Of a stretch of DNA of 64,000 nucleotides, positions 10,201-51,016 are shown one piece after another. A model generated the notes under the pieces. That model was not told the DNA's origin. It worked only from the letters and a program-made list of their open reading frames with translations, and ran no database searches. Each line of letters opens with the position of its first letter. Position 1 is the first letter of the stretch. The stretch is from Macrostomum lignano (taxonomy: Eukaryota): the NCBI GenBank assembly GCA_002269645.1, contig NIVC01000254.1, forward strand, positions 248,001 through 312,000, read 5' to 3'. The position numbers and the translations under genes are program-made.

Positions 10201-13200
10201 CCTCCCCAGAATCTCACGATTCTTACCCCTCCCCAGAATCTCACGATTCTTACCCCTCCCCAGAATCTCACGATTCTTACCCCTCCCCAGAATCTCACGA
10301 TTCTTACCCCTCCCCAGAATCTCACGATTCTTACCACTCCCCAGAATCTCACGATTCTTACCACTCCCCAGAATCTCACGATTCTTACCACTCCCCAGAA
10401 TCTCACGATTCTTACCACTCCCCAGAATCTCACGATTCTTACCACTCCCCAGAATCTCACGATTCTTACCACTCCCCAGAATCTCACGATTCTTACCACT
10501 CCCCAGAATCTCACGATTCTTACCACTCCCAGAATCTCACGATTCTTACCACTCCCCAGAATCTCACGATTCTTACCACTCCCAGAATCTCACGATTCTT
10601 ACCCCTCCCTAGAATCTCACGATTCTTACCCCTCCCTAGAATCTCACGATTCTTACCCTCCCCAGAATCTCACGATTCTTACCCTCCCCAGAATCTCACG
10701 ATTCTTACCCCTCCCCAGAATCTCACGATTCTTACCCCTCCCAGAATCTCACGATTCTTACCCCTCCAGAGAATCTCACGATTCTTACCCCTCCCCAGAA
10801 TCTCACGATTCTTACCCCTCCCCAGAATCTCACGATTCTTACCCCTCCAGAGAATCTCACGATTCTTACCCCTCCCCAGAATCTCACGATTCTTACCCCT
10901 CCCCAGAATCTCACGATTCTTACCCCTCCCCAGAATCTCACGATTCTTACCCCTCCCCAGAATCTCACGATTCTTACCCCTCCCCAGAATCTCACGATTC
11001 TTACCCCTCCCAGAATCTCACGATTCTTACCCCTCCCCAGAATCTCACGATTCTTACCCCTCCCCAGAATCTCACGATTCTTACCCCTCCCCAGAATCTC
11101 ACGATTCTTACCCCTCCCCAGAATCTCACGATTCTTACCCCTCCCCAGAATCTCACGATTCTTACCCCTCCCCAGAATCTCACGATTCTTACCCCTCCCC
11201 AGAATCTCACGATTCTTACCCCTCCCCAGAATCTCACGATTCTTACCCCTCCCCAGAATCTCACGATTCTTACCCCTCCCCAGAATCTCACGATTCTTAC
11301 CCCTCCCCAGAATCTCACGATTCTTACCCCTCCCCAGAATCTCACGATTCTTACCCCTCCCCAGAATCTCACGATTCTTACCCCTCCCCAGAATCTCACG
11401 ATTCTTACCCCTCCCCAGAATCTCACGATTCTTACCCCTCCCCAGAATCTCACGATTCTTACCCCTCCCCAGAATCTCACGATTCTTACCCCTCCCCAGA
11501 ATCTCACGATTCTTACCCCTCCCCAGAATCTCACGATTCTTACCCCTCCCCAGAATCTCACGATTCTTACCCCTCCCCAGAATCTCACGATTCTTACCCC
11601 TCCCAGAATCTCACGATTCTTACCCCTCCCCAGAATCTCACGATTCTTACCCCTCCCCAGAATCTCACGATTCTTACCCCTCCCCAGAATCTCACGATTC
11701 TTACTCCCCAGAATCTCACGATTCTTACTCCCCAGAATCTCACGATTCTTACTCCCCAGAATCTCACTATTCTTACCACTAGAATTTCTTATTAATTAGC
11801 TACCTTTATTAGGGATAATTTTTATTTCTAAAATACCTTATTAATCTACTCTTTTCCTAATATAAAACCAAATTAATCTACCATAATAAACTAGTGGATC
11901 ACCCAAACACACCTTGAACATTGGATCGTTGGGCAGATGCTTGAGCGCAAACTCTCTCTGGCACATGTAGCGCGGGTCAGTCTTGCGCAGTACAGCGTGC
12001 CCGAACCCGGGCACCACCTGGCCGCTCTGCAGAGTTTTCCAAACGTACTCTTTCACTTTGTCGTCGCTAGGCGAGTTTCCAATTTCGGCTACCATGCGAG
12101 TCAGCCAGACCAGCACCTCTTGATTGGCGAGGCCGTGCAGCGGGCCGGCCAGACCGCACATTCCAGCGGCGAAGGACAGGTAAGGGTCGCTGAGTGCGCT
12201 GCCAACCAGGTGGGTGGCGTGGGCGCTAACGTTGCCGCCCTCGTGATCGGAGTGGATGGTCAGGTAGAGGCGCATGAGCTCGGTGAAGTCCTCGCTCTGG
12301 ATTTGGCAGGTAGGATGTCAATTGTCACATTTGGTGGCTTGTTAAATAGAGATCTTAGATGAGGGTGCTGGCGGCTGATCAAAGAGTGTTTAATGAGGGG
12401 GGGGGGTTGGCGGCTGGCTGATCAAAGGGTGTTTAATGAGGGGGGTTGGCGGCTGATCAAAGGGTGTTTAATGAGGGGGCTGGCGGCTGATCAAAGAGTG
12501 TTTAATGAGGGGGTTGGCGGCTGATCAAAGGGTGTTTAATGAGGGGGGGTTGGCGGCTGATCAAAGGGTGTTTAATGAGGGGGAGTTGGCGGCTGATCAA
12601 AGGGTTTTTAATGAGGGGGGGGGGTTGGCGGCTGATCAAAGGGTGTTTAATGAGGGGGGGGGGTTGGCGGCTGATCAAAGGGTGTTTAATCAGGGGGGGG
12701 TTGGCGGCTGATCAAAGGGTGTTTAATGAGGGGGGTTGGCGGCTGATCAAAGGGTGTTTAATGAGGGGGGTTGGCGGCTGATCAAAGGGTGTTTAATGAG
12801 GGGGGAGTTGGCGGCTGATCAAAGGGTTTTTAATGAGGGGGGGGGTTGGCGGCTGATCAAAGGGTGTTTAATGAGGGGGGGGGGGTTGGCGGCTGATCAA
12901 AGGGTGTCTTTAATGACGGGGTGGCTAATCTCTACATCCGGCATCTCACCTCAAATCCCATCATGCGAACGAAGTTAGCAGACCAATCCAGTTTGGGGTC
13001 GATGGCTCCAATGGATGCGCCGTCCCTGTACAGATTCTTGTAGATGATGGCCGCCACTGTGGGCAGTTTGGCGATGAGGTCCATGCTGTCCTCGAACACC
13101 AGCTCCCAGTACTTGGTCTTGGGCACGCCCTCAGCGTAGGCCTGCAATAGGGATTGATGAGGATTAATCGATGAGACAGGTGGATGGAAATGATAGGCAG

Positions 13201-13233
13201 ACAGACAGACACTAAGACAGAGACAGACAGAAC

Positions 13234-13280
<47 letters not shown>

Positions 13281-13296
13281 GGACAGATAGATAGAA

Positions 13297-13333
<37 letters not shown>

Positions 13334-13452
13334 CTAAGACAGAGACAGACAGACACTAAGACAGAGACAGACAGAACGACAGACAGACAGACAGACACTA
13401 AGACAGAGACAGACAGACAATAAGACAGAGACAGACAGAACAACAGACATGC

Positions 13453-13483
<31 letters not shown>

Positions 13484-13488
13484 TAGAA

Positions 13489-13521
<33 letters not shown>

Positions 13522-13565
13522 CTAAGACAGAGACAGACAGACAATAAGACAGAGACAGACAGAAC

Positions 13566-13599
<34 letters not shown>

Positions 13600-13613
13600 A
13601 CGACAGACAGAAC

Positions 13614-13661
<48 letters not shown>

Positions 13662-13686
13662 CACAGACAGACAGACACACAGACAG

Positions 13687-13717
<31 letters not shown>

Positions 13718-13724
13718 CACAGAC

Positions 13725-13765
<41 letters not shown>

Positions 13766-16068
13766 AAGACACAGACAGACAGACACAGACACTAAGACAG
13801 AGACACAGACAGCTTACCTTAGCGAAGCGGCTCTCAGTGTTCATGGCGGCAATGGCGCAGGCGAACTGGCTCATGGGGTGCAGGCGGTTGGGGAAATTGT
13901 TCAGCATGCTGACCACGTGACCGGGCACGGCCGCCCGCTTGGCCCACTCGTCGCTGATCCACTGCACGTGGCGCTGCTCGGGCACCTGCAAGGGAGGCAG
14001 ATGCGACGGTTCTGGGGTTAGGATTTTCTTAAACAGTTCAGGCTGCTTCTCTGATGAACGAGCTTAGGGCGATTCTCTCAATGAGTTTAGGGCGATTGTC
14101 TCAATGAGCTTAGGGCGATTGTCTCAATGAGCTTAGGGCGATTGTCTCAATGAGCTTAGGGCGATTGTCTCAATGAGCTTAGGGCGATTGTCTCAATGAG
14201 CTTAGGGCGATTGTCTCAATGAGCTTAGGGCGATTGTCTCAATGAGCTTAGGGCGATTCTCCTAATGAGTATAGGACGATTGTCTCAATGAGTTTAGGGC
14301 GATTCTATTAATGAGTTTAGGGCGATTGTCTCAATGAGTTTAGGGCGATTCTCTGAATGAGCTTAGGGCGATTGTCTCAATGAGTCTAGGGCGATTCTCT
14401 GAATGAGCTTAGGGCGATTCGCTCAATGAGTTTAGGGCGGATCTCTCAATGAGTTTAGGGCGATTCTCTCAATGAGCTTAGGGCGATTCGCTCAATGAGT
14501 TTAGGACGATTCTCTCAATGAGTTTAGGGCGATGTCTTAATGAGTTTAGGGCGATAGTCTCAATGAGTTTAGGACGATTGTCTCAATGAGTTTAGGGCGA
14601 TTCTCTCAATGAGTTTAGGGCGATTGTCTCAATGAGTTTAGGACGATTGTCTCAATGAGTTTAGGGCGATTGTCTCAATGAGCGTAGGGAGATTCTATTA
14701 ATGAGTTTAGGGCGATTTTAACGGGTTTCTAAAATAATGGTAGCACCGTCAGAGGCACGCTAAACTTACCTGTCCTGTCAGGAGCAGGTAGAACAGGCCC
14801 TCAGGCAGTGGCTCATTCCCGCCGGCAGCCTTGGGCAAAATTTCCTGACAATCAGGAATCGAATGCCCACGAAATCGGATGCCCTCCTCGGGGTCCAGCA
14901 CGGAAGTCTCGGTCACCAGGCCACGAACGCCGCGCATACCGCCGTACATCATGTCGATGGTGACTTCGCCGAGCTTGAAATCTCCGTGGGTTTTTCGAAA
15001 ATTGGCCACCCGCCGTTGTTCGACTGGCACCAGTTCCGACATGATGTCGCGGAGATTCTACGAGGGCGGCGAGAGTAGCACTAGTAAGCTTCTATAAAAC
15101 AGCTCAGATGGATTTAAGCATAGTGATGAAACAAGCGATACCGATTCCTATATATTGTGAACCCAATAATATCGCAAAATCTCTTTCAAACTGACAAAAC
15201 TCTCACTAGAACAACTTTTTCCAAAAATGCAAAAAATGCAAAAATGCAAAATGCAAAAAAATGCTTGTAAAATTCAAGCATTTTAAATCTCACCCATAGG
15301 AGACTGAATCTCAAAATCATCAAATCTCAAAATCTCACTTATAGTAGAGTCCATCTTTAAATCTCACCCATAGTAAGGTGAAGCTCAAAATCTCACCTAT
15401 AGTAGAGTCCATCTCAAAATCTCACATACAGGAGAGTGAATCTCAAAATCTCACATACAGGAGAGTGAATATCAAAATCATCAAATCTCACCTATAGTGG
15501 AGTCCATCTCAAAATCTCACATACAGGAGAGTGAATCTCAAAATCTCACCCATAGGAGTGAATATCAAAATCATCAAATCTCACCTATAGTGGAGTCCAT
15601 CTCAAAATCTCACATACAGGAGAGTGAATCTCAAAATCTCACCCATAGGAGTGAATATCAAAATCATCAAATCTCACCTATAGTAGAGTCCATCTCAAAA
15701 TCTCACCTATACAGTAGTAAGTTTATCTCAAAATCTCACCCATAGGAGAGTGAATCTCAAAATCATCAATTTTCAAAATCTCACCTATAGGAGAGTGAAT
15801 CTGAAAAGCTCACCCATAGAAGAGATTATCTCCAAATTTTATCTATAGTAAAAAATTATCCTAGTCATGCTATTAAACTTAAAATCTAATTTATAACCAC
15901 AGTATTGTTTTTATTAAAAATATAAAAAAGCACAATATGAAACCATAATACTACACTTATACTATTAAATTCTAGAAAACATAAGCTTACAGCAGTTGAT
16001 GATGCCCTGATACCAGTCTTGGCCAAGGCAGACAAATTGCGCAACATTCCAGCTGAGTATAAGGCCAT
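7220..16068 (-). CDS. CS: Mitochondrial citrate synthase, 6 exons: 16068-15991, 15057-14770, 13985-13818, 13141-12950, 12296-11913, 7495-7220 (461 aa)
   Basis: Hallmark motifs [88 protein letters not shown] and [12 protein letters not shown]. Exon 1 resembles a presequence. All five introns are GT-AG and the exons join in frame. Confidence 0.97.
7552..11775 (+). repeat. 27-bp minisatellite (CCCCAGAATCTCACGATTCTTACCCCT), about 4.2 kb, in CS intron 5
   Basis: Read directly; 26-bp variants and CCACTC variant blocks occur. Confidence 0.99.
12370..12905 (+). repeat. 32-36-bp minisatellite (G-run TTGGCGGCTGATCAAAGGGTGTTTAATGA) in CS intron 4
   Basis: Read directly; unit length varies with the G-run. 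Confidence 0.95.
13195..13812 (+). repeat. (AGAC)n microsatellite in CS intron 3
   Basis: Read directly. Confidence 0.97.
14055..14720 (+). repeat. 22-23-bp minisatellite (AATGAGCTTAGGGCGATTGTCTC) in CS intron 2
   Basis: Read directly. Confidence 0.95.
15285..15830 (+). repeat. Degenerate AATCTCA-based repeat with a higher-order unit, in CS intron 1
   Basis: Recurring AAATCTCACC/ATAGGAGAGTGAATCTCA blocks. Confidence 0.85.
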
Positions 16069-18560: not shown

Positions 18561-20570
18561 TCTCATGGACCTATATTTGAAAACAAAGAGGCTTTAGCTA
18601 TATAAGAATGCACTTTTTTGACCTAATCTTTTCTGGCTTGACTAAAATTTTCTAGATAATAGAAAAGTAAAACTTAGAAGGAAATTTCTTTATACCTCAA
18701 CTAGAAATACAGCAGTCTTTGTCTAGTAGTCTTGGACCTATCACACTCACATGTGCTTAGTTGATTGGCTTTGCAAGATACATGAGTTGGCTTATCAGAG
18801 GGTCAGTGTTATCTATGAACAGATTAAGTCTTTTTAGTATATAAAATTTAATAGAGTGTTATTTATTTTATTATTTTATACTTCTTAATGTGACTAGGCT
18901 TTTCTTATAGTATAATGAATGAGAATTAATTTATGTAAAAATGAGAATATAGTTGCCAAACCTGTTAGGCCCATAAAATTCTATGCTATTATATATCAAA
19001 CAGATCCTTGGCCAATTTTTGCTGTGCCAACTGCAATCTTCAATTTTGTGCCAAATGTAAAGAACTGACACATGGCCAGTTTCTCTTACACATTTTTTAG
19101 ATTGGAGTGTAAGTTTTTCTATTAAAATGTCTAAAACAACTATAGTCTAGATAATTAGCAGCAAACTATGCTTTTAAGTAAAAATTTTTGCATTGAGACA
19201 GCAGTTTTCCTCAAACACCAACTTCATTCTAACTTTCCCAATATTTTAAGACAGGGTACCTTGTTTTCCACAGAGATTCATCCACATAGGCCACAAATAA
19301 GATGCTGTAAATATGGAAGCTTGGTTGAATACACATTGACAATTTTGCTTATTAGTGAGCATAGAAGGGAGTATTATCTAGTTAACTCTGATTGAAAGAT
19401 TTTATTTGGCTCTTTATTTAGGCCTAGGGCCTAGCCATGCTAGAAAAAGAATGGCTTAAAATAAAAGAATATGATCAATATGAATTAATCAAACACTACA
19501 AATTAGAGTCCAATTTGAATAGTAAGATTTGCTACGCCAGTTGGAGGCTATAGAAGAGTGCTCATCATCGGGGCACATAAGACTTGCAATGAATGCCTTT
19601 CACATCTATAGTCACAAAACCAAGTGTCAGGTTAGTGGTCAAGTTTAGCATTTAACTTAAGTGATGCTGGATCTGTCTTTACTTGCATCTTAATAATAAT
19701 TACATAATAATTTATAACTAAAATGTGTTGTTTCTGTGCCTGTCTATACAAAATTATAAATTCTAATATGCAAGCATAAATAAAAGCATAAAGGGTATAA
19801 ACATGTTTTATGCAAATATATAAGAGCCTCATCTTCAAGTGACACTTGACACCAACAAGATTCTACAAACCAGTCAGATGGTTGTTCTCAAGGGTGCAGT
19901 ATCCCTGAAGGCTAGGGGAATCCTTCTAAGTTTTGTGACTGGGTCAGACCACGTTTTTAGTAATAAAAATTCATTACTCTCTATACGTGATGCGTGAGAA
20001 TTTCATAGCAGGTAGGGGGGCCTAGTTGAAATTGTGGTGATAGGTAACTTTGAAGTGAAGTTTTAATAATTGGGTTGATTGTGTAGCCTTTATATTTAAT
20101 TTATAGGCCTAAGCTTAGGAGATGTAAGTTTTTATGAGAGAACCTTTACATACGAGTAGCCTACATTTAAAGGTTTCTTTTTTGAATGCTCAAGGCGTCA
20201 AGCTTTGCTTTATCCATATGGCCCACAACTGAAGGAGATGCGTTTGGACAGGACAGGCACACTTTTTTCTAGCCTATATTATTATTAGGCATCTAAATGT
20301 GTCCCATTTCCTTAAATCTGGTAAGCATGCACATTCAAGTATACATAGCCATAGGCCTATTTGAGTACACATAAGAAAGTATTTTTTGTGCAATTTTACC
20401 AAACCTTTTTCAAGTTGAAAATGATGGCTAATATTGGGTGTTAATTAACTAATAGACTAAAGGCCTGATTAATGCAATTTTAAGTAAATAAACTTTGCTT
20501 GATGTTGCTTTACGTTACGTTACTTTATGGATGGTAAAGGGTGATTCTCATCGAGAGGTTTCGGAGGTTT

Positions 20571-21600
20571 TGTGGTAGGGCGCACTACCACGTTTGGAAC
20601 AGGTGACCTCACCGTAATGACTCTCGCGTTCTGTCTCACCCGATGCGCCGTCCCATGTCTCATCCCTCGCCCCATCTTTTGCCGTCGCGCGTAATTTTTT
20701 GTTATTCTCATTCCCGGCTTTGTTGTCGTCCGATGCCCCATCCTTCGTCCCATCTCCTGCCCCATCCTTCGCCTTCCTGCCCCATCTGCTGCCCCATCCC
20801 CGTCCGGACGACATCGCCCCCACTATTTATTAAGGCCATTTCAGGCCGCAAGTTTTCATTCCTTTCCCCTGCCTCCTACTTGTTCGTTTGTCCGTTTTCC
20901 GTTTCCGTTCCGCTTCGTGTACCCTCGTGTACTCGTCTGTTTAGTGTTTAGTTTCTTTTGTGCTCAAAGTTAAATTAGTACTTGTTTAGTCTCGATCTAC
21001 TAGTTTGTTTAGTTAGTCGTTCGCACCCGGCACCGGCCGAGGATCAATCGTCTGAATTCAACTTTATTTTGCCAATTTACGCCTGCTAATACAACATCAA
21101 TAAATAATATTAATTAACTAATAATTAAGTCTGTCCCGTTAACGAAGCCCATAATAGTTTATCTTGAGTTATTTGCCCGTGATGCGTTAAACAACCGAAT
21201 CGATCTCAACTCTAAGCGAGCTCTGAGATCCCAACGTTCCGTAATACGGATTAAATTACGGTGGTGGCAGCGCTACTCTACTGACAGTAATCAGTACGAC
21301 AATTCAAAAGCAGATTTACGGTGTCTAGACCAATTGAGTCTACGGATCTGAACGACCGGGCCGCTATACGACCGCTCCGCTACGATTACAACTACCCTCC
21401 CCCCCGGACTTGAGGACCCGGCAGTCGGAGTATTTGGAGAAAACTTCGTTGAGTTTCGTCTGCGCGACATTTCCGGATTTAACTCGTGCGAACTCAACAT
21501 CGGCGGAAATTCAAACGCGGAATCCGCCCAACTCATTGGTGACAGCGAATCAAGTTCAAACCGAGTAATCAACCAAATTACTTTCTCCCCCCCCACCTCA
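20571..21600 (+). repeat. 5' LTR of element A (1030 bp)
   Basis: Matches 34131-35158 line for line except the terminal C-run; AATAAA near 21098. Confidence 0.96.
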
Positions 21601-21601
21601 C

Positions 21602-21621
21602 TGGTGTCAGCTAAGTGGGAT
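21602..21621 (+). promoter_or_regulatory. Primer-binding site, tRNA-Leu(CAA)-like, with a 2-nt insertion
   Basis: TGGTGTCAG-CT-AAGTGGGAT, 1 nt after the LTR CA. The canonical form is TGGTGTCAGAAGTGGGAT. Confidence 0.8.
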
Positions 21622-21667
21622 AACGAAACGCCAAAACCCATTCGACGAGTCGTTCAGAATCTACGTT

Positions 21668-23095
21668 ATGGCTTCGACTACTAACTCAACGGCCGCGGAC
21701 GCGACAACCGACGCCGCGGGCCCCGACAATTCATCTACAAGACCTACCTACGACGAGATGATCCGCGCGGTGACCGAAGAGGTGCGACGACGACTGGAGC
21801 AGGCTAATTTGGGACAGCCACAACACCATCACCACGTGTACCAGCCGCCCCAACAGCCGGACCGAGCTCCAGTGCCAAAACCGGTTAAGATTCAGCGGTA
21901 CACTCCAAACCAGGATTTCGACGTCTGGATCCAGGCTCTCGAGGAGCGTTGTGAGCTCAACGGGATCATGGACGACAGACGAAAGAAGGCGGAAGTACTA
22001 GTAAATCTGGACATCGCCACCACATATCCCGCAGTCGTCAGGATGGAACTGCCGGACAATCTGACGTTTGGCGAGTTCAAGCAGAGGTTGTCCGAGCGCT
22101 TCACGCACGCGGCCGACACGCTGGAGTACCGGGAGCAGTTCCGATGCTGCCAGCAAGGAAAAAACGAGAGTGTCGACGACTACGGTGATCGATTAATTGC
22201 TCTGGCTGATAGAGCATTCCCGCACTTCACCCCAGTTCAGAAGCAGGCCGAACTGGTGGACCAGTTCACGGTCGGAGTGCGAATCGCCCAGTCAGCCAGA
22301 GAGCAGCTAATCCTGGTACGGCCGCAGAATCTAACCGCAGCGAGAAGGGCAGTGCTACGCCTAGAGACAGCAGCGAGCCTGGCTCAGCGAGTAGCACCGA
22401 CGCCGGCCGCGAGACATGTACGGGTTCTCGAGGATGACGACTGTCAGCCACCAACTGGAGTGCAACACGACAAGTCACCTCGGCCCGAGGAAAATTGGTT
22501 GCGAGAAGTGATGGAGCAACAATCAGAGACACTGCAGGAGCAGCGACGTCTACTAGAAGCTCTGAGCAATGAGATGCGAGAGTTCTACTCACGGGAATCG
22601 CGAGATACCGACACCCCGGAGCCATATGAACCTGCTCGCCACCAGCCGCGGGACTCCTGGGGCCAGCGCAACCGATGTCTGGTACCCACGACTCCTCGCC
22701 GCAGCGCTGAAGGAAGCGCTCAATTTGCGACAAACGGCACACGCAATGTGCAGCATCAACAGTTCCATCAGCTTCAGCAACCGCGTGACGGCAGCATTCC
22801 GCCGCCAAGGACGCCACCGGCAGGAGGACGGTGACAGCAGCAGCAGCAGCGGCCGCAGCCGCAGCAGCCGCCGCAGCCGAGTTCGAGACCGCCGCCTTAT
22901 CAGCTAAGACGCCAGAGTGCAATGTGCTACAGGTGCAACCGGGAGCATCGCGCTGAAGAGTGCCCGCATCGACGGTCGGCCAGCAACGCGCCCCAGCGCA
23001 GCAGCAGCTCGGGAAACGCGACGGCTGGACGCGCCATCGGGGGCAGCGCCATCCAGCGGCCGAGCCAGCACTTAAGTCCCCGCCGCGGACTTTAG
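21668..23095 (+). pseudogene. gag: gag with a C-terminal zinc knuckle and an in-frame TGA at 22832-22834
   Basis: Capsid-like FRCCQQGKNESVDDY..L..LA; after the stop the same frame reads CYRCNREHRAEEC. Confidence 0.88.
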
Positions 23096-26000
23096 TCGCT
23101 CAGCAGGCTACTGCTGAGACCGCCTCCGCACCTGTACAGAACTCTGCACCCAAGCGCCCTCGGAGAGACCCGTTTATAACTGGTGAGATTAATGGGCGTT
23201 ATTTTGCTTTCTTGCTTGATACTGGCTCTAAGTGCGAGGTCCTCGGATTCAGCACTTGGCACCGACTCTGCATCGACGACCCCTCTCTGCGTGGACAAAT
23301 CAAGCCCTGTTTAGAGTGAATCGTGACCTACAATGGTGAACCAATCAAGATGGCAGGACAGCTTGCAATCCAGATGAAGATCGGCAACTTCGAGTTGACA
23401 GTCAATTTTCTGCTAGCACAAGGATCTCATGATAACATCCTGGGTTTCGAGTTCCTGGAGAAGCACAGCAACTCCCTCGACCTCGCAGCCGGGATGCTAT
23501 TTTTCAAGAACGGCACAGCCGCCCCACTTCGCTACACACGAGCCGAAGCTACTACGTGCAGAATCTACACGGCCGAAAGCACTACAGTGCCACCATTATC
23601 ATCGGCCCGAATTAGAATTAAGCTAGCTAAAGGGCGTGAAGACAATCAAGGAACACCGGCAGTTATCGAGCCGCTGAAACCAGCCAGACGCGAAGACGAG
23701 GTGCAGCACCTGGACGCTGCTGCGCCTGCGCTAATATCTATGGCCAATGGTGAAGGTGCAATCGAAATGATTAATCGCGGTACAACATATATTAAAGTGC
23801 GAGCGAATGCACTTATCGGGATTGCGAGACCACTTAGACTGCCAGAACTGCAATTCTACCCGCTTCCACAGCCAGAAGTCTCTGTCAAGCAGATTCAAGA
23901 TGAAGATCCGGATGCTTGGATTAAAGAGATCGATATCGGCGAGGACTTGTCCAGTGACCAGCGCGCTCAAGTAATCAAGCTGCTGAAGAAGTACAAGAAC
24001 ATCTTCTCCCAAGGACCGCACGAACTAGGTCGAACTCACCTGGTCACCCACAACATCGTACTGAAGGATAAGGATCCTGTACACCTGCCGACCCGACGGA
24101 TTCCGCCGCACCTGTTGCCCAAAGTGGACCAGCTGCTAGATGATCTGCTTGCCAAAGGCGTGATCCGACCAAGCTTCTCGAATTACAACACCCCGCTCGT
24201 GATCATCCCAAAGAAGGACGGAAGCCTGAGAATTGTACAAGATTTCCGGAGTCTGAACCAGAAGTGTGAGTACTTTCCGTACCCGATACCAAATATCCAA
24301 GAAGCATTCGCCAGCCTCGAAGGAAGTCAACTATTTAGCACCTTCGACTTGAATAGCGGTTATTATCAGATACCTCTGCGTCCAGAAGACCAAGATCTGA
24401 CAGCCTTTGCTACGCTGCACAGAGGGCAATTTGCCTACAATGTTATGCCGATGGGATTAAGTTCAGCACCAGCCAGCTTCATGCGCCTCATGAACGCTGT
24501 ACTTCAAGGGATAGCCTACAAAAGTGCCATAGCCTATTTGGATGACGTCATCGTGTATTCCAAGAAATTCGACGACCATCTTCGACATATGGAGGAAGTC
24601 TTCAAACGAGTCCAAGACGCTAACTTAAAGTTCAAAGGCAAGAAGTGTCATTTATTTCGGGAAAGCCTAATTATTTGGGACATCTAGTTACGAAAGACGG
24701 CATCAAGACCGATCCGGCGAAAATCGAAGCAATCCAAACCTGGCCGAGACCAAGAACTGCCCGGCAACTGAAAAGTTTCGTCTGCACGTGTGCTTACTAT
24801 GCAAAATTTGTACCTGGCTACGCAGAATTGGCAGCTCCACTCCACGATGTAATTAAAGAGAAGAAGATTCGCAACTTTAATTGTCTATGGGGGAAAGCCC
24901 AACAAGACGCGTTCGACCAGCTTAAAGCGGCCATGACTTCGAACTCAGTGCTCGCGTATCCGCAGTTCAGCGAAGACCCCAACGTCATGTTTGTCCTGGA
25001 CACGGATGCTTCTGCGACCAGAATCGGAGCATGTCTGAGCCAGCGCCAAGCTGATGGAATCGAACGACCAATTGGCTATTTCTCCCGGCGACTCAAACCA
25101 GCTGAAGCGCGATATCCGATAACAAAGCAGGAACTCTTGGCAGTTGTAGACGGCATGCGACATTTCCGATTCTACCTCCTGGCCACGGAGTTTATTTGTC
25201 GAACTGATCACGCAGCGTTGACCTGGATTCTCCGGCGAACTCAACAAGTAGGCATCTTTGGACGATGGCTACAGCGCCTAAGCGAATTTGAGTTCGAGAT
25301 CCAGCATCGCAAATCGAGTCAGCACCAGAATGCCGACGGCCTATCGAGACGGCCAGAGGACGACGCTGAATGCATGGAGAAGGCTCAGCGAGAGGCAGCA
25401 GACGAGGACCAAAGTAATCAGCCAGCCGCGATAACTGGCGCAGCGGCGCCGAAGGTCCTTGACAGCAGCCACCCTAGCCCTCCACCGAGCAAGAAGCCAT
25501 CGACCCGCCGGAATCGACGACGACCGCCGACAAAGCCGAAGGAGTCCAACGGCGAGGCTACGCCGCCAGCAACACCGACAGCCGACAGCAGGTCGCTGAC
25601 AGAGCTGCACCCGCCGGCGACGAAGCCGAGGCCAACGGCCAGTCGTTACAAGGACTCGCAGCGATCGCCTACTAGTCTCGTTAGCACGACACGTTGCCCC
25701 GCGAGGAGCCGCCGACTACGAGCTGGAGAGGGCGAGGACAGCGACCACAGTGCAGCCCGAGATGACCGCTGCCAACCCGCTCGCTGCCCAAGGTTCAAGA
25801 AGGTGAGGTTTAGCCTTGATGCTGATAATGCTGCCTCATCATTCTCATCTGCTGACGAATCAGGATTGAGCGACAGTGACGCCGAAGCCACTGACGAGGA
25901 TCGACCTTCGGACACAACGACAACACGGCGACCGGCCCAAGTAGCCATCATGCGTAGGGAGCTCCAGACCCCGAACCATGTCGCCACAGCCGAAGCCGCA

Positions 26001-27479
26001 CCGTCTAATCCTACTGATCGACGCCGAACTTTGAATCTAACTGATCACATTCCGAGGCCAGTCACCCGCGAGGAGCTCCAGACCCTTTCAGCGTGCTGAC
26101 TCTGCCATCTCTATGGTGATCAACCTTATCGAAAGTCGACAACCCAAGCCGCCGCTGAATCAGCGATTGAATATGACGAGAGATGAGCGAAATTTGCTAG
26201 CGTTCTACGAGCAGCTCGAAGTTCGAGACGACGGACTACTAGTGATTCATCTCGACGATGTTGGCGAGGAGGAGATAGCGCGAATTGTCTTGCCGAAAAG
26301 TCTCGACGCCACGGTGTTTGCCGACCTGCATGGCTCGCCGTACTGCGGACACATGGGCCGAGACCTCACCATTGCAAAAGTGCGCGAAAGATTCTGGCGA
26401 CCTGCCCTAGCTAAAGCAGTGTCCGACTACGTCGCTTCCTGCCAGACTTGCACGCAGAGCAAAGGGCGACGACGAATTCCGGCGCATGTACAATCGTTTC
26501 CGGTATGTGAAATCTATGGGCGATGTGCGATCGACATCTTAGGCCCCACTGGAGATCCTACTGACCGAGGAAACAAGTACATCTTGACCTACGTTGATAC
26601 AACGTCGAAATACCCCTTCGCCTTCGCCATGAAAAATCAGCGGGCCAAGACGATCATAACTCTCCTGCAGGAACAGGTCTTCCCGATCACTGGAATCCCG
26701 GCGTGGATTCACTCCGATCAAGGAAAGCAGTTCACAGGGCATGAGTTCCGACATTTCTGCGAAGTCTATGGCATACGACAGACTACGACACCGCCATATT
26801 CGCCCTGGGCTAATGGATAAGCCGAGTCGTGTAACAAGAATATCAAGAAGGTGCTCACTTGTCTCCTAGAAGACCACCAGCAATGGGACAAGATGCTGCC
26901 AGCCGCTTTGACTGCACTACGATCAGCCGTCAATCGTACTACTGGTTTCTCGCCGCACTATGTCGTCTACGGAGTGCCCTATCGATACCCTATCGACAAC
27001 ACCCTAGACCACTTGGATGTATCAGCTGACCTCCCAGAATACATCGCGAAGCATCAGCGCCGACTGGCCGAGACTGAGCGCATTGTACGACAACGCCTGC
27101 GAGCTGAGATCCAACGCCGTGAAGAATATTATGAAAATCGACCTAAGCCCGTGGAATTGCATCCCGGCGACCTTGTCTGCCTGGCCAACTCGAAGCTTGA
27201 ACTGGGAGAGCTGCCTAAATTCCACCGGCCCTACAAAAGCATGTACAAGGTCGTTAGGAAAGTCGGAGAAGTGGCGTACTGGATCAGACCGGCGACAGCC
27301 CGCCGAGGACGCCCGGCTGAAATGTTGGTACATCGCAACAACATCATCAAGGTACCGCAGATGATGGCCGACCGACCACAGGAGCCGCCGCGCCAGACTA
27401 AGAGGCCAATGCTGCCCTATGAGTCGAGTGACGACAGCGAAGCCGACTCCGCCGATCAGCACGCGCAAGTACAGCCAGC
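22960..27479 (+). pseudogene. pol: pol (protease-RT-RNase H-integrase), disrupted
   Basis: LLDTGS protease, YLDD RT, DTDAS and TDH RNase H, H..GH...C..C and D,D35E integrase. Stops at 23317 and 26818; frameshifts near 24669 and 26087. Confidence 0.95.
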
Positions 27480-27879
27480 CAGGGGCGTAGCCAGAGGGGG
27501 GGGCAAGGGAGGCCGTGGCCCCCCCAATCACCAACTCTGGCCTTGGCGCCCCCCCCCCTAAAAGAAACTGGCGCCCCCCCCCCTAAAAGAAACTGGCGCC
27601 CCCCCTAAAAGAAACTGGCGCCCCCCCCCCCTAAAAGAAACTGCCCCCCCTAAAAGAAACTGGCGCCCCCCCCTCTAAAAGAAACTGGCACCCCCCCCCT
27701 AAAAGAAACTGGCGCCCCCCCCTATAAGAAACTGGCGCCCCCCCCTAAAAGAAACTGGCGCCCCCCCCCCCTATAAGAAACTGGCGCTCCCCCCTAAAAG
27801 AAACTGGCGCCCCCCTATAAGAAGCTGGCGCCCCCTAACTCACGGCCCCCCCTAATCAAAATTCCTGGCTACGCCACAG
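27480..27879. mobile_element. MITE of about 400 bp (hAT-like TIR) containing a C-rich 21-24-bp tandem repeat
   Basis: TIR CAGGGGCGTAGCCAG / CTGGCTACGCCACAG; internal (C)n TAAAAGAAACTGGCG units; the TSD is imperfect. Confidence 0.75.
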
Positions 27880-28153
27880 CTCAGCCCGACCTGCGGGGCA
27901 GCCAGCTGATCGAGCCAAGTTTGCGTCATCCGGAAGTGCTTGCTGAAGGCGACCCGGACCTGCCTGATGTCGGCCTGGAAGTGGAACTCTAAGGTAATTA
28001 CCAGCGAATTTTTCTGTTGCGCCTAATAGATAAATTAACGTTGCGCATTACTATTAGTAGTCCCGTTTGCGAACGCGTTCTGAATTAAATTTCGCTGTAA
28101 GCTTTCTCTGCACCCGTTCTGTGCTGAAAGCAGATTTCAATTTTTCGTTAAAA

Positions 28154-28690
28154 TTTTCTGTACTTTCCTTATGCTTGAGGGCAAAAGCAACTAATTTTCT
28201 GTAGTTTCCTTATGCTTGAGGGCAAAAGCAACTAATTTTCTGTACTTTCCTTATGCTTGAGGGCAAAAGCAACTAATTTTCTGTAGTTTCCTTATGCTTG
28301 AGGGCAAAAGCAACTAATTTTCTGTACTTTCCTTATGCTTGAGGGCAAAAGCAACTAATTTTCTGTACTTTCCTTATGCTTGAGGGCAAAAGCAACTAAT
28401 TTTCTGTAGTTTCCTTATGCTTGAGGGCAAAAGCAACTAATTTTCTGTAGTTTCCTTATGCTTGAGGGCAAAAGCAACTAATTTTCTGTACTTTCCTTAT
28501 GCTTGAGGGCAAAAGCAACTAATTTTCTGTACTTTCCTTATGCTTGAGGGCAAAAGCAACTAATTTTCTGTAGTTTCCTTATGCTTGAGGGCAAAAGCAA
28601 CTAATTTTCTGTACTTTCCTTATGCTTGAGGGCAAAAGCAACTAATTTTCTGTACTTTCCTTATGCTTGAGGGCAAAAGCAACTAATTTT
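28154..28690 (+). repeat. 41-bp minisatellite (TTTTCTGTACTTTCCTTATGCTTGAGGGCAAAAGCAACTAA), about 13 copies
   Basis: Period of 41 seen (28171 to 28212). Confidence 0.95.
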
Positions 28691-29758
28691 TCAATTTCTG
28701 CTCCTTACGCTTTCTGGTCAAAAGCATTTGTAAACTTGGTGCTCATGCTCAATTTCGAGCGCATATTTATCCAATGCGACCTGCACCTCTGCGTCTGATA
28801 TTTAGCCTTAGGCTTAATGGTAAAAGCCTTGCACCAACGCGACATTATTCATCCGCATCATCGCTCCCCTGCGTCTTAATAGTCTGCGAACCCCCAATCA
28901 ATTGTAAAATTTCCTAGCACCCGGTCAAAGTGCAGAAAGTCTCTCTTTCTTGCCTTATGCTTTCAGGAGAAAAGCATGCCTGAATTGTGAGCCTGTCAGT
29001 CTTAAACATGAACGGCAAGTGTGTACTTCTGCCATTTTTTATTCGGAAATTTTGCCCCGTTTGGGACAAGCACCCCTAACTCGAGGTCTTGTCTCCAGCG
29101 GAAGGCACCTGAGGAGAATCTCTCCCCCATATGTTTATTCTTTGCATTGTTCGTGCCAGCTAGGCCTGGGAAATTTTGTTAGAGCCCCTCATTTCGGCTC
29201 GGTTTCCAGTATTTTCTTTTGCTCTTTTGTTGTAACTCAATATGGAGATCCCCGTACGATAACCTGTTCAGTGGTCACTACGCTATTCATTACGGTTATA
29301 ATTACTGTTATAATTTTAGTCAGAAGGAGCTGGCTAGCCTCTCACTATTTTATCAGTTTTATCATTTTAACTAATGTTTGCGAGGCTCCCTTTTTTTCAA
29401 ACGCTTACCCCTTTTCAATGTAAGCTGTTTAAGGCGCCCCTTTTAATCAATAAGGCACTGCCGCCTTCAGTTAAGGTAGGAGGTTTTGGACCCCTCCTCG
29501 CGGCCAAATTTTATTGCTCTCTTTTCACTCACCCACCTCACCTCTGTTGTGTGCCTCGTTAGAGTGCATGGGGGGTGACGGACCCACATCATCGGAAGGA
29601 CAAACCCTGTCCATCGGATGCGTGGTTAGCAATATATATTTGAGGCCCCAACTCTCCTGCTCTGTTTTTCAATTTTGGTTTTGCGACTCTGCGCCTTTGT
29701 CAGCAATTAACAAGCTATTCTATCGACAACTTTCCGGCAACAATGTATAACGGCCATT

Positions 29759-32700: not shown

Positions 32701-33340
32701 TCCAGGATGCTATAACAGTAGCTGGTGGCCGCAAGAACATCTTACTCTCCAAAAATCTCCTATCTAGTGTCAGAATGGCCAGGCAGCGTTACCGTGATGC
32801 CTTGGAGGAAAAACGAGACGAGGAGAAATCGAACACAGCGGTCACCGTATCCCAGAAGAGAAAAGCGACTGACGAGATTTTCCGAATCGAACAGGAGCTC
32901 GAAGCTAAGCGACGTGCTCTGTTGGCTGAAGAGACAGAGGCGCTTGCTCGTGTCGAGGAGTTGCGCAAAAGGCTCGCCTAAGTACATTTGTTAACTGACG
33001 ACAGTTAGTTACAAGTACTTAAAAAGCTCATAATTATTTGCTGAACATTGGCGGAGCGTTTACTGTCATGCATATTTTGCTTTATTTTCACTTCCATAAA
33101 TGTCCCATTTTATGTTCTATTTTACGAGTTTCAGTTTCGTTCAATGTTAGTCTTGTAGTTTTAATGGACGGCTCATTGACAATAGACTGTATATTTTACC
33201 CATTTTTTACTTTCCATTTCATTTTTCACGTTTCATTTTATAAAGCTTCACCAGGTAGCAACCTGGAGCTTTACTTATTTGAACCTGGAAAAACCTGGAA
33301 AAACCTGGAAATTAATATTGAATTTCGCGCGGACACCCTG
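29759..33340 (+). mobile_element. hAT-superfamily-like DNA transposon, apparently complete
   Basis: Perfect 13-bp TIR CAGGGTGTCCGCG; 7-bp TSD GGCCATT (29752-29758 and 33341-33347); ACCTGGAAAA subterminal repeats. Confidence 0.92.
30372..32981 (+). CDS. Transposase, 4 exons: 30372-30899, 30999-31643, 31748-31960, 32043-32981 (about 774 aa)
   Basis: BED-like FCAVC...H...H; DEA, SMDGPNVN, CGLH, VRWLEN and HGNATVESGFSVNK. Exons join in frame; the exon 3 acceptor (tttaag) is inferred. Confidence 0.82.
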
Positions 33341-33352
33341 GGCCATTAGAAT

Positions 33353-34111
33353 ATGGAGATCGACGATCCGATTGAGCGACTTTTCGCGGTGGATCAGCCA
33401 AGGGTCGAGCTCGTCGGACTGCCTGCGGCGCCTCAACCTTTCGTTCCGCCGAACAGCCCGGACCACTGGCCTGAGGGATTCTTGGCCGACGTGTATGCGG
33501 CCCAAGCGGACCCCTTGCAGGACGCAATCCGCTTCGTTGAAGTACATCGGCCACCGTCGCCCCCGCCACAGCCGCAGCCAGCCCAATGGTCCAGCGGGTC
33601 CAGCGGCACACCATCGGCGCCGTGGTCGGCGGAACACCGACCCACGGTGGAGGGCGCCCAGCAGCTCGCCGAGTGGCTCCTCTAGGAGCTGGACACAGAT
33701 GGCCGCCAGCATTCTAGTGACTGCTGCACCTGGAGAGCGCTAGCGCAACAGCACGGCCAGGCCACCGCGTCCAGGGCCATCCTAATGGTGGCGGAGCTGC
33801 TGAGCGCGCGCCTCCCGCACGAGACGGCAGGCGCCCAACTGGGCCTCGTCGAATCGATGATGCATCTCGGCGCGGAATACGCGGCCGCCCTGGGCCGAGG
33901 CGTCCCGCCGGTGTTCCTAAATCTTTGTTGCCAGGGCCGACTCGCCGACTCGCCGCGCCGCCGTACGAGAAGCTGCCGCCGCTGCCCAGGCCGACGCCGC
34001 CGCCGCCCAGACCGACGCTGCGACTGCCCGACCGCCACCTACTCGCCGAGGCCGCGGCTCCGGCAGAGGACGTCAACAGTAGCAGCCGGGAGACTGCTAG
34101 TTTTATTTTAG
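33353..34111 (+). pseudogene. Extra ORF in the 3' internal region of element A, with an in-frame TAG at 33683-33685
   Basis: ORFs 33353-33685 and 33785-34111 share a frame; GC-rich; no recognised domain. Confidence 0.4.
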
Positions 34112-34130: not shown

Positions 34131-35158
34131 TGTGGTAGGGCGCACTACCACGTTTGGAACAGGTGACCTCACCGTAATGACTCTCGCGTTCTGTCTCACC
34201 CGATGCGCCGTCCCATGTCTCATCCCTCGCCCCATCTTTTGCCGTCGCGCGTAATTTTTTGTTATTCTCATTCCCGGCTTTGTTGTCGTCCGATGCCCCA
34301 TCCTTCGTCCCATCTCCTGCCCCATCCTTCGCCTTCCTGCCCCATCTGCTGCCCCATCCCCGTCCGGACGACATCGCCCCCACTATTTATTAAGGCCATT
34401 TCAGGCCGCAAGTTTTCATTCCTTTCCCCTGCCTCCTACTTGTTCGTTTGTCCGTTTTCCGTTTCCGTTCCGCTTCGTGTACCCTCGTGTACTCGTCTGT
34501 TTAGTGTTTAGTTTCTTTTGTGCTCAAAGTTAAATTAGTACTTGTTTAGTCTCGATCTACTAGTTTGTTTAGTTAGTCGTTCGCACCCGGCACCGGCCGA
34601 GGATCAATCGTCTGAATTCAACTTTATTTTGCCAATTTACGCCTGCTAATACAACATCAATAAATAATATTAATTAACTAATAATTAAGTCTGTCCCGTT
34701 AACGAAGCCCATAATAGTTTATCTTGAGTTATTTGCCCGTGATGCGTTAAACAACCGAATCGATCTCAACTCTAAGCGAGCTCTGAGATCCCAACGTTCC
34801 GTAATACGGATTAAATTACGGTGGTGGCAGCGCTACTCTACTGACAGTAATCAGTACGACAATTCAAAAGCAGATTTACGGTGTCTAGACCAATTGAGTC
34901 TACGGATCTGAACGACCGGGCCGCTATACGACCGCTCCGCTACGATTACAACTACCCTCCCCCCCGGACTTGAGGACCCGGCAGTCGGAGTATTTGGAGA
35001 AAACTTCGTTGAGTTTCGTCTGCGCGACATTTCCGGATTTAACTCGTGCGAACTCAACATCGGCGGAAATTCAAACGCGGAATCCGCCCAACTCATTGGT
35101 GACAGCGAATCAAGTTCAAACCGAGTAATCAACCAAATTACTTTCTCCTCCCACCTCA
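34131..35158 (+). repeat. 3' LTR of element A (1028 bp)
   Basis: Near-identical to 20571-21600; followed by TSD GTTT. Confidence 0.96.
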
Positions 35159-37534: not shown

Positions 37535-37814
37535 ATCCTCGGATCCCCACATGCCCCGGAACCCACTTAAGGGTAATTTTGTTGGCGGAACCCAACACGT
37601 TGAGGAGTTTGATACAGTCGAGGACTGTAGCAGAGTTGGTGCTGCAGCCACTGATGGCGTGCAAGGCAGCTTGGCTGTCCGGATGGAAAATGATGTTCTT
37701 ACCAGTAACGCCAGTGGCGAGAAGCTCTGCAGTGCAGGAGCTGATGGCCAGAACTTCATTTTGGAAAACACTGGAGTTGACCCCAGTGTATTGAGCGTGG
37801 GTAGCGATGACCAA
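37535..37814 (-). pseudogene. RNase H fragment of a non-LTR retrotransposon
   Basis: SVFQNEVLAI...DSQAALHAI...V.DC..LL..L...N.ITLKWVPGHVGIRG. Confidence 0.8.
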
Positions 37815-38141: not shown

Positions 38142-39209
38142 TGAAGTGAGCACTAGTTTAGTGTTAGGTGCCCCCTTTGTCAGCTGTGCCCTGCGCCCTT
38201 CTGAGCTGTTGGCTGCCGCTGGCCGCAGCTCTCCCTCTCGCTCTCCCTCTCTCCCTGTCCCTCTCTCCCTCTCCCGCTCCCTTCTCTCCCTTTCCCTCCC
38301 TTGTTGTCCTTTGTCTGCTTGCGCTCCCTTTTGTCCCCCCCTTTTTCCTGTTCGTTTGCGTTCCCAGCGTCTGAGCTTCTCCGCTCAGCCTGTCCTTGAT
38401 TCTTTGTCTGTCCCCTACCCCCCTTTTGTGTGACTGCGTTCTTTTGGCTCGAGTCCAGCTTGTTCCGGCTGTCCTCTCTCTGTCTCGCCGTACGAGAGCG
38501 GATCACGTGCCCCAGGCGCTCTGTCCTTTTGCGCTCCCTTGTGCAATCTCGTGTGTCAGGCTCTAAATTAGGAAAGGCGTCCTTGCCTCTCAAGTTGGGG
38601 GTTCCGCGCCTGTTTCTAAATTTAGATCTGAATCACGCCAGATTGGGGGGCAGTGAGAGCGGCCTTGCGTACTCTGGCGCAATGGGGAGGCTTTCACTGT
38701 ATGGTGAAATCGATCCGCTACCCTATAAGTACGGGCCTCTCGTGCCTCTGTTTGGCAACCCTCTGTGAAACCTCTCGTTTACCTGCGCGTTAACCCTTCT
38801 GATAACTGCTCTGTTGGAAGTCCAGCGCAGCTTGCGCTAGGCCTTAGCCAACTTATCTGACTTCTGATCCATTTTCGACTGTGTGCCTGTGAGTGAGTGC
38901 GAAACTCCCGACAGGACTAACAGAAACTAGCACAGTTCCTCATCCCCGCACTTGAGCCCGGCAGGAACCGCTGACGAGGTGTGCACCGGTGTGAGCTGTC
39001 AAATCTGCACGGCGTGCTGAGTTTTCGTGTCTCGTTTATTTCGCTCAGCCCGGAGTCTCCCTCATCGAAGGACAAGATCCGAGCGAGCTGGTGGCAGCAC
39101 TACCAACGCTACTAAGAATTGCTAGAAGGCTTCCTGGGAGAGTCTACCAAGAGCTCAAAGTAAGCAGCTCGCGGGACTGACAGGGAAGTAGCCGGAACCA
39201 AGTACTTCA
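38142..39209 (+). mobile_element. LTR of a second family (B), 1068 bp
   Basis: Inverted termini TGAAGT...ACTTCA; purine tract AACGGGGAGAG at 38131-38141; PBS immediately downstream. Confidence 0.78.
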
Positions 39210-39210
39210 C

Positions 39211-39229
39211 TGGTGGCAGCGGTGGGATT
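39211..39229 (+). promoter_or_regulatory. Primer-binding site, tRNA-Leu(AAG/TAG)
   Basis: TGGTGGCAGCGGTGGGATT, 1 nt after the LTR CA. Confidence 0.85.
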
Positions 39230-39290
39230 CCAAGACCTACAGCTAGGCCACCCGAGACAAAATAAGAGACCACCAACAACTATACTTCAT

Positions 39291-39682
39291 GAGTCATTTG
39301 CCCGTGGGGCGTAAAATAACCCAGTCTCATCTCGAAGCAAGCTCTGAGACTTCAACGTTCCGTAATACGTAAATTACGGTGGTGGCAGCGCTACTCTACT
39401 GTTAGTAAGAAGTTAAACATACGAGGTACATTAAGTTTCGGTGTCTGAGGACCCGCTCTGAACGCTCGCGCCTAACGAAGACCGCTTGCCTACGACTGAG
39501 ACTACCCTTCCCCCGGAATTGAGGACCCCGGCAGACGGAGTATCTACGAGACTTCTAAATTGGGATTCGTCAACGCAATTTCCGGATTTAATCTGTGCGA
39601 ATTAACGACGGCGCCGATTCGAAGGCCTGAGCCGCTCATACTCGACATTAAATCAAGCGAACACCGGACGATCCCACCCACA
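39291..39682 (+). mobile_element. Diverged homolog of the R/U5 part of the element-A LTR (copy C)
   Basis: Colinear motif matches to 21166-21600; ends CCCACCCACA. Confidence 0.75.
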
Positions 39683-50489: not shown

Positions 50490-51016
50490 TATAACTAATT
50501 TTCGACTAATAAACTTGCGGCTAAACTTAATAAAACCTTAATTAATTTGCTAATTAACTTTCGGCATCCACTAACTGAAGCATTCGCTATAGTCTATATT
50601 AAGTCATTTGCCCGTGGGGCGTAAAACAACCAAAAGTTCTCATCTCAAAGAAAGCTCTGAGAATTCAACGTTCCGTAATACGCAAATTACGGTGGTGGCA
50701 GCTCTACCCTACTGAAAGTAAGCAGTTCAGCGATTTCAACGCGTAATTTCTACGGTGTCAAAAGCTCCGGTGTCTACCATCTGAACGACCGTGCCGCTCT
50801 AACGACCGCTCTGCTACGATCACGACTACCCTCCCCTGGACTTGAGGAACCCGGCAGTCGGAGTAACAAAGGAGAAAAGCGTCCGATTGATTCTGTGAAA
50901 TTTTCTGGCTTTACGAGTGCCAAGATCACGAAGGCGGCAGTTCAAAGGTTTAGAAAACCAACCAGCCCGAACCAAAATAACCTTAAAATTTTTCTTTTTT
51001 TGTCCGACTCACCTCA
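50490..51016 (+). mobile_element. Truncated LTR (R/U5) related to element A (copy D)
   Basis: AATAAA context, the shared module at 50601-50865, and a CACCTCA terminus like that of LTR A. Confidence 0.72.

Follow-up and report, generated by a model that had tools for sequence, protein, structure and literature searches.

The locus raises the question of what keeps a module of 267 nt conserved inside the long terminal repeats (LTRs) of a retrotransposon family in Macrostomum lignano. The window, which is the whole stretch of 64,000 nucleotides analysed here, carries the module four times (copies A1, A2, C and D; Table 1); all four places given in the original prediction were verified, and the sequence motifs named there are present as described. 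We propose that the module is a multipartite docking platform for the primer tRNA, which lies in U5 and helps reverse transcription to start at a bulged primer binding site (PBS). The binding of the tRNA is a prediction, and we put the probability of this reading at roughly 55%. It builds on the location and conservation of the module, on complementarity to tRNA-Leu in excess over shuffled sequences, on the presence of one of the complementary sites (site 1) in two sister families, on the bulged PBS and on a compensatory pair in a long-range helix. Among the functions that had been listed for the module, a primer-activation element comes closest to this reading; the complementarity to the tRNA had been missed.

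Table 1. Features of the window that bear on the module (positions count from the first letter of the window)
Feature	Position	Strand	Remarks
5' LTR of Ty3/gypsy element A	20571..21600	+	TG...CA ends
AATAAA, putative poly(A) signal of element A	21099..21104	+	would place the module in U5
Conserved U5 module, copy A1	21166..21432	+	within 5' LTR of element A
Stem 1 of the original prediction	21202..21230	+	five inner pairs near-invariant; outer pairs partly kept
Stem 2 of the original prediction	21239..21261	+	one compensatory swap, inner pair
Site 1	21262..21272	+	complementary to tRNA-Leu(AAG/UAG) 3' end with CCA; first 10 nt kept, the 11th varies
U5 arm of predicted long-range helix	21347..21356	+	also complementary to Leu-CAG/UAG anticodon loop
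Sequence complementary to tRNA-Leu nt 24-28, on the 3' side of the D stem	21358..21362	+	
Site 2	21370..21396	+	complement of tRNA-Leu nt 13-20 (21370-21377), 6-11 (21379-21384) and 1-5 (21392-21396)
Conserved C-run and 3' motif	21397..21432	+	outside tRNA pairing
Long hairpin 3' of module	21448..21498	+	moderately conserved
Element A gag, protease-like motif, RT, RNase H, integrase	21569..27561	+	spread over several frames in this copy
Primer binding site, bulged	21602..21621	+	adjoins 5' LTR
Leader arm of predicted long-range helix	21649..21658	+	10 nt before gag ATG (21668)
3' LTR of element A	34131..35158	+	contains module copy A2
Module copy A2	34726-34992		inside element A 3' LTR
LTR of sister family E, adjoining copy C	38142..39289	+	site-1 hairpin 39089-39103; perfect PBS copy 39211-39230
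Module copy C, in LTR fragment	39291..39542	+	site 1 39380-39390; site 2 within 39453-39507
Module copy D, in LTR remnant	50601..50865	+	site 1 50693-50702; site 2 within 50772-50831

Copies A1 and A2 belong to element A, a Ty3/gypsy element with gag followed by RT-RNase H-integrase, TG...CA LTRs, a PBS and a 4-bp target duplication (GTTT at 20567-20570 and 35159-35162). Its LTRs are 99.7% identical; the insertion is young, and A1 and A2, one from each of its LTRs, count as a single observation. In RT-RNase H, full elements representing A, C and D share 88-98% amino acid identity and are therefore subfamilies of one Ty3/gypsy family, not independent elements, to which the three diverged LTR types of the original prediction have to be reduced. 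The flanks of the module had been described as dissimilar. This holds for the upstream flank of copy C, where the LTR of a sister family (E) adjoins the module; downstream, the similarity between copies A and C continues to 21518. Element A also contains a 3.6 kb insert (29758-33340) that is absent from a 95% identical copy. The insert, which has split ORFs, a weak zinc-finger match, short subterminal repeats and no significant Pfam match, is probably a DNA transposon. Tandem arrays of 23-nt and 41-nt units lie in the 3' internal region (27544-27835 and 28152-28690), and a proline-rich ORF of 111 aa without a Pfam match (33350-33685) precedes the 3' LTR as a possible accessory ORF.

The remainder of the window contains other features as well. 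A second, distantly related Ty3/gypsy element (40257-44721) has 218-nt LTRs that are 99.5% identical, one ORF of 1262 aa and an RT-RNase H that is 35% identical to that of family A. An open frame of 253 codons (39500-40261) runs from inside copy C into a weakly matching Mutator-like transposase fragment (E 0.033), and a related copy elsewhere in the genome (L032) has the same junction. Directly after copy D follows a PIF1-like helicase ORF (51150-53060), possibly derived from a Helitron. Moreover, the window contains a minus-strand, PNMA-like gag fragment (36474-37819), a separate integrase fragment (57233-57937), an open frame of 441 codons in AT-rich DNA without a Pfam match at E<=1 (47214-48539) and long satellite arrays at about 7500-11800, 400-900 and 13100-14700, with periods of 27 nt, 8/12 nt and 23 nt.

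For a broader sample, the host genome (G000) was searched with A, C and D, which gave 993, 1095 and 1127 first-look candidates; these figures are not copy numbers, and 40 candidates of each were scored. A set of 57 module copies of less than 95% identity was drawn from 139 full-length matches (110 distinct) plus the window copy. Furthermore, 106 copies with a usable 3' anchor were kept, and 10 copies lacking the anchor and two partial matches were left out. AATAAA or ATTAAA lies within 130 nt upstream of the module in 95 of the 106 copies, which bears out the AATAAA noted earlier, and the family LTR-end motif follows downstream in 82 of them, mostly at a distance of 140-190 nt. As the module thus has the poly(A) signal on one side and the LTR end on the other, we infer that the region is U5 and is found in the 5' leader only, in line with the leader position that had been suggested before. 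Subfamily LTRs of this family also occur head to tail about 1 kb apart in the host genome (e.g. L026, L041, L043 and L057). Two or three module matches were present in 21 of 90 loci, on the same strand in 27 of 28 cases, the loci not being independent, and the arrangement was seen in 1 of 15 loci of a less biased sample; it suggests insertion beside or into related LTRs.

The plus strand of the module is depleted of AUG (0.96 against 2.74 expected), whereas the minus strand is not (3.21 against 2.71), and this strand-specific depletion fits a 5' leader RNA. A leader of about 800 nt (its start being estimated) that is poor in AUG could also be at home in translational control, the module acting as an IRES for gag or as a ribosome-shunting structure and the long-range helix, the end of which lies so close to the gag ATG, gating the start codon. 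5'-UTR IRESes have been described in Drosophila gypsy (PMC1635307). However, ordinary scanning fits the AUG depletion as well, no fixed frame follows the module (the best ORF of at least 60 codons is in frame 0, 1 or 2 in 24, 43 and 4 of the 106 copies, respectively), no IRES in Rfam matches at E<=10 and the complementarity to the tRNA would be left unexplained. Translational control is thus an unlikely function of the module.

In the IGR IRES of dicistroviruses, a fixed AUG-less frame starts right after the last pseudoknot, and the loops of SL IV and SL V are characteristic. An element of this type, which was suggested by the open frame after copy C, was rejected because the frame is not conserved, the ORF of copy C is the weak Mutator-like fragment mentioned above, Rfam gave no match and the check for SL IV and SL V was negative; the IRES of the original prediction is therefore not supported as far as the IGR type is concerned.

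The module stands out from the LTR that surrounds it. Among 21 non-redundant LTRs, drawn from 71 complete-looking copies, its mean pairwise identity is 0.80, compared with 0.55, 0.54 and 0.60 in three upstream segments, 0.67 in the downstream part and 0.52-0.53 in shuffled sequences. The identity of the module exceeds that of each upstream segment in 209-210 of the 210 LTR pairs. The pol DNA of four other full elements is 81-99% identical to that of element A. The comparison with the rest of the LTR, which had been named as a way to refute the prediction, has thus come out in its favour, and the module is a real, selectively kept element.

Covariation had been claimed for the outer pairs of stem 1, and it is weaker than stated: the pair 21203:21229 is formed in 35 of 57 copies (GC 19, AT 10, TA 4, GT 2), and the 20 copies with TC are unpaired as aligned. 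Stem 2 had been regarded as invariant, but its inner pair changes from UA to AU in one subfamily (17 against 5 of 23 rows). The covariation term of RNAalifold amounts to only -0.49 kcal/mol (40 copies), and the pairs with the highest plain mutual information in the same number of copies are not Watson-Crick pairs and mostly reflect phylogeny. Covariation in these stems is modest. On its own, the plus strand folds no better than shuffled sequences (z +0.72; in a subset of 12 from the 57 copies, z averaged +0.54). A comparison with Rfam yielded no match at the gathering score in the whole window and none at E<=10 in 21050-21620.

Short conserved motifs separated by variable linkers might also indicate a self-cleaving ribozyme of a new type, similar to those in the LTRs of retrozymes. 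The hammerhead core consists of CUGANGA and GAAA on three stems, and twister has a cleavage-site motif before P2. Judging by eye, the minus strand of 21385-21432 resembles twister. However, the core of the hammerhead plus GAAA was present in 1 of 57 copies, and twister on the minus strand was discarded, as Rfam gave no match and the cleavage motif was found in 0 of 57 copies. For HDV-like ribozymes, which are characterised by a nested double pseudoknot and a catalytic C, the Rfam search gave no match at E<=10. Given that the plus strand has no folding excess, that no Rfam family matches at E<=10 and that cleavage in U5 would cut the template of the strong-stop DNA, we consider a ribozyme, one of the candidates in the original prediction, to be extremely unlikely.

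A hint at the function of the module comes from the tRNA-Leu genes, which were located and typed in the host genome. The conserved motif at site 1 opens with 10 nt that are perfectly complementary to the 3'-terminal 10 nt, including CCA, of the host tRNA-Leu(AAG) and tRNA-Leu(UAG). In the 57 copies, 565 of 570 cells in 21262-21271 form Watson-Crick pairs with the tRNA, and conservation ends after nucleotide 10. The 10-mer occurs in 53 of the 57 modules but in only 1 of 96 upstream stretches of 600 nt. When followed by CTAC, it is found 1494 times in the host genome, as opposed to 10 times for the reversed pattern, and the first 30 of these matches belong to the family of the module (15), to family E (13) and to another sister family, F (2). 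The window itself holds a fifth occurrence at 39089, in the LTR of family E. The LTRs of the three families are otherwise unalignable, while site 1 is kept to the base in all of them. Because the letters upstream of the 10-mer differ between the families, the common part starts at the last base of the tRNA. Site 1 can also fold back on 21273-21277 to form a 5-bp hairpin. One tRNA-Leu gene combines a CAG-type body with an AAG anticodon (G000:C1887:121168). For genome annotation, it should be considered that PBS-like 10-mers inside LTRs may mislead the assignment of LTR boundaries.

About 100 nt downstream of site 1, site 2 is complementary to the 5' half of the same tRNA. With G-U pairs counted, tRNA-Leu(UAG) pairs in 452 of 456 cells for nt 13-20, in 280 of 285 for nt 6-10 and in 279 of 285 for nt 1-5 (57 copies); nt 11 and 12 are paired in only 31 and 25 of the 57 copies. 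Against 10 modules, nt 1-28 of the AAG and UAG tRNAs reach -33.7 and -33.3 kcal/mol, respectively, compared with about -25 kcal/mol for shuffled sequences (sd 1.6-1.7). Shuffled 5' ends were as good in 0 of 200 cases for AAG, 0 of 200 for UAG and 7 of 200 for CAG, again with 10 modules, and 0-1 of 60 shuffles did equally well when nt 1-41 were used (10 of 40 copies). Moreover, the best window for the 5' half of the tRNA lies in the 3' part of the module in 39-40 of 40 copies. The specificity for tRNA-Leu is to be read with caution: a Val-like tRNA/SINE 5' end reaches -32.2 kcal/mol against the modules, close to the values for Leu (-34.9 and -33.8). Since a general tRNA pattern gave no matches, the control set of other host tRNAs was small, comprising Lys and SINE-like Ile, Leu-TAA and Val sequences, half of its 14 rows being fragments. 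As the tRNA is invariant, true covariation with it cannot be seen, and sequence decay from G to A or from C to T looks like substitution that tolerates wobble pairs.

Complementarity to a tRNA could also be a matter of the DNA, namely if the minus strand carried a tRNA-derived Pol III promoter, as in Helenus elements, or if the module were a downstream promoter element. The minus strand folds slightly better than expected (mean z -0.85) and has an A-box-like motif in 25 of the 57 copies. However, the A box is a consequence of the origin from a D arm, a B box is present in at most 6 of 57 copies, ARAGORN detects no tRNA in the window, and both the AUG depletion and the tolerance for G-U pairs favour an RNA of the plus strand. 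A role at the DNA level is therefore hardly to be expected.

The docking platform would have to cooperate with the regular PBS. In 23 leaders, the PBS fits Leu(AAG/UAG) and Leu(CAG) about equally well (mean -29.5 and -29.3 kcal/mol). Of the 85 LTR-end/PBS junctions detected by pattern, 79 have a bulge in the PBS, and one full element of the D type has a perfect PBS for AAG/UAG. The leader has two features of a multipartite PBS, namely a site for the tRNA's 3' end beside the 5' LTR, here in a bulged form, and additional segments that are complementary to arms of the same tRNA, conserved and present beyond chance. In a cofold with the tRNA, the module received each of the 49 intermolecular pairs and the PBS received none; the program used is unable to draw the crossed layout of site 2 and PBS.

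Furthermore, U5 and the region between the PBS and the gag ATG can pair with each other. The U5 arm is an exact complement of the leader arm, and for the window leader both the minimum-energy fold and the centroid contain the helix. The pair 21348:21657 is UA in 11, CG in 8, UG in 1 and otherwise composed in 4 of 24 rows, being broken in the latter; one row (L264) is not homologous. The U5 and leader sequences of the same element pair better than permuted combinations, although relatedness inflates both permutation tests, and the mean pair probability of the helix exceeds 0.5 in only 10 of 19 leaders. According to the model, the helix would close a domain that holds site 2 and the PBS. Pairing of 21347-21354 with the anticodon loop of the tRNA is possible; it was not counted among the tRNA pairs because the helix accounts for this motif and shows a compensatory change.

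The bulged PBS suggests yet another role for site 1, which may serve as a decoy or sensor for 3' fragments of tRNA-Leu or for free tRNA and thereby regulate the RNA rather than prime its reverse transcription. Fragments derived from tRNA 3' ends (3'-tRFs) repress LTR elements via the PBS (PMC12853362), and most copies have a bulge in the working PBS, in contrast to the perfect copies in U5. However, the match of site 1 is confined to the final 10-11 nt, its predicted binding is weaker than that of the PBS (-21.5 against -29.5 kcal/mol), and a 3' fragment cannot bind site 2. We therefore regard a decoy as very unlikely.

The sister families E and F also bear on the two sites. In RT-RNase H they share 54-57% identity with A, and the three families group in a single clade (SH-aLRT 100, in a quick tree only). 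Site 1 is present in A, E and F, whereas blocks complementary to the 5' half occur in A, E and a metagenome relative (L220) but not in F. In family E, complements of the D loop and the 5' end follow the PBS in 5 of 5 element leaders (-23.6 to -26.2 kcal/mol), energies that the best of the chance controls also attain (up to -28.4), and the complement of the tRNA 5' end comes directly after the hairpin in 10 of 13 E-type matches. In the leaders of family F, a site for the 5' half was not found in 4 of 4 elements (-12.8 to -19.9 kcal/mol, which is in the range of chance). The controls were 40 PBS-like matches in viral contigs, none of them with RT or gag nearby. L220, with an RT identity of 39%, has a similarly bulged PBS at 3483-3501, which fits two tRNA-Leu isoacceptor groups about equally, and complements of the D loop and 5' end just upstream. 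It ranks first of 41 when compared with the chance matches in phage contigs, by a margin of only 1.3 kcal/mol over the best of them. Among 39 metagenome relatives, most of which are too short for an LTR, it is the only one with a Leu-type PBS at the LTR end. The patterns of the module and the hairpin gave 0 matches in the metagenome and viral contigs, and no RT relatives were found in the viral contigs.

The LTRs of families E and F also contain tandem units consisting of an LTR end, a near-perfect PBS and about 50 nt (39200-39289 in the window; L148, L149, L206, L213 and L339 elsewhere). The terminal PBSs of these families are often bulged, whereas the captured copies in their LTRs are mostly perfect. 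The LTRs of E and F appear to grow through PBS capture.

Such captures lend weight to the main competitor of the docking platform, according to which the complement of the tRNA is a fossil of a captured PBS or primer copy, and the module is kept as an intramolecular scaffold for packaging or dimerisation that does not bind tRNA. Units of LTR end and PBS have entered U5 repeatedly in these families, and the sequence complementary to the tRNA pairs with itself, RNAalifold joining site 1 to site 2. In addition, short palindromes are present in stem 1 and in the loop of site 1. Pairing with the tRNA accounts for about 45 of the 267 nt, and the blocks that do not match it are equally conserved (0.92-0.94 against 0.86-0.96), so that something other than tRNA binding could be preserving a fossil complement. 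However, it would be surprising for a fossil that site 1 is exact and has its edge at the end of the tRNA in three families with otherwise unalignable LTRs. The palindromes are lost across subfamilies, and the module alone is not stably folded. We consider this explanation possible, if doubtful.

We thus return to the docking platform, in which the module would act in the genomic RNA by capturing and unfolding the primer tRNA-Leu. The 5' half of the tRNA would be paired with site 2 and its 3' end placed on the PBS at the same time, which would offset the bulges of the PBS, and the long-range helix would bring the PBS near the module. Site 1, half hidden in its own hairpin, may hold the acceptor end during capture or bind a second, non-priming tRNA. 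We take the other 220 nt or so, for which pairing with the tRNA does not account, to be a scaffold or a signal for packaging, or possibly for dimerisation. Since the complement of CCA is included and PBS units are frequently captured into U5, the module probably originated from a reverse-transcribed copy of the mature primer that was caught in U5. With its 10-11 nt, site 1 could also misprime, for which the docking model offers no explanation. In a bolder and rather speculative version of the model, a U5 dock in one clade of animal Ty3/gypsy elements would grip the whole tRNA-Leu by both ends and hand its 3' end to a deliberately imperfect PBS, such that only full-length tRNA, and not the silencing 3' tRNA fragments of the host, engages the priming site.

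If the docking platform exists, the contact between primer and template would be unusually long for an animal LTR retrotransposon. It would also lie in a new place, inside the LTR, and include a second site for the acceptor end that is kept across families with an RT identity of 54-57%. The model also touches on the persistence of a bulged PBS and on possible ways for LTR elements to escape silencing by 3'-tRFs. Should the binding of the tRNA fail, the module would be an ordinary conserved U5 with a fossil copy of the primer.

In the literature that was searched, which included few subscription papers and Repbase reports, no account of such a site in U5 was found. Sequences related to tRNAs have been described within LTRs before. 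For instance, a tRNA-Lys3-like sequence has been reported within U3-R of HIV-1 (Piekna-Przybylska 2010, cited in PMC6468702), which is likewise a sequence related to the primer tRNA that is embedded in the LTR. The Helenus TRIMs carry in their LTRs sequences derived from tRNAs, and their animal members have 4-bp target duplications; they are non-autonomous, shorter than 1 kb and retain a Pol III promoter formed by boxes A and B (PMC10886601). In contrast, the family of the module codes for gag-pol, its match to the tRNA runs antisense and the B box is not conserved. Membership in Helenus (TRIMp3) was thus rejected in view of the counts of A and B boxes given above and of coding elements of roughly 9-10 kb. 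Priming by tRNA-Leu together with 4-bp duplications has been reported in lennie and ta-TRIM (PMC4558846).

Additional contacts between a template and its primer have been described mainly for Ty1 and Ty3 of yeast, gypsy of Drosophila and retroviruses. The bipartite PBS of Ty3 and the second PBS of Drosophila gypsy are distant second sites for another part of the primer tRNA (PMC5371799, PMC1635307). These sites are at the 3' end of the RNA and bridge both of its ends, whereas the site in the module is in the 5' leader. The 3' second PBS of gypsy is dispensable for cDNA synthesis (PMC1635307), which calls for caution in the case of the module. In HIV-1, the A-rich loop as well as the primer activation signal, and in ASLV the sequence in U5 that contacts the T arm, lie upstream of the PBS and pair with the primer beyond its 3' 18 nt (PMC13191261). 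This is the same crossed layout as proposed for the module; the contacts in these viruses comprise a few bases of the anticodon loop or T arm, as compared with about 24 nt in the module that match the D arm and 5' end and another 10 nt that match the 3' end. Finally, Ty1 combines a short PBS for the 3' end with segments that can pair with the T arm and the D arm of that tRNA, tRNA-iMet, and that serve in the packaging of the primer and in initiation; these segments are found inside GAG, on the 3' side of the PBS and no more than 28 nt apart (PMC4974528). In the module, by contrast, the segments are located 200-340 nt upstream inside the LTR, the tRNA is tRNA-Leu and a second site for the acceptor end is added.
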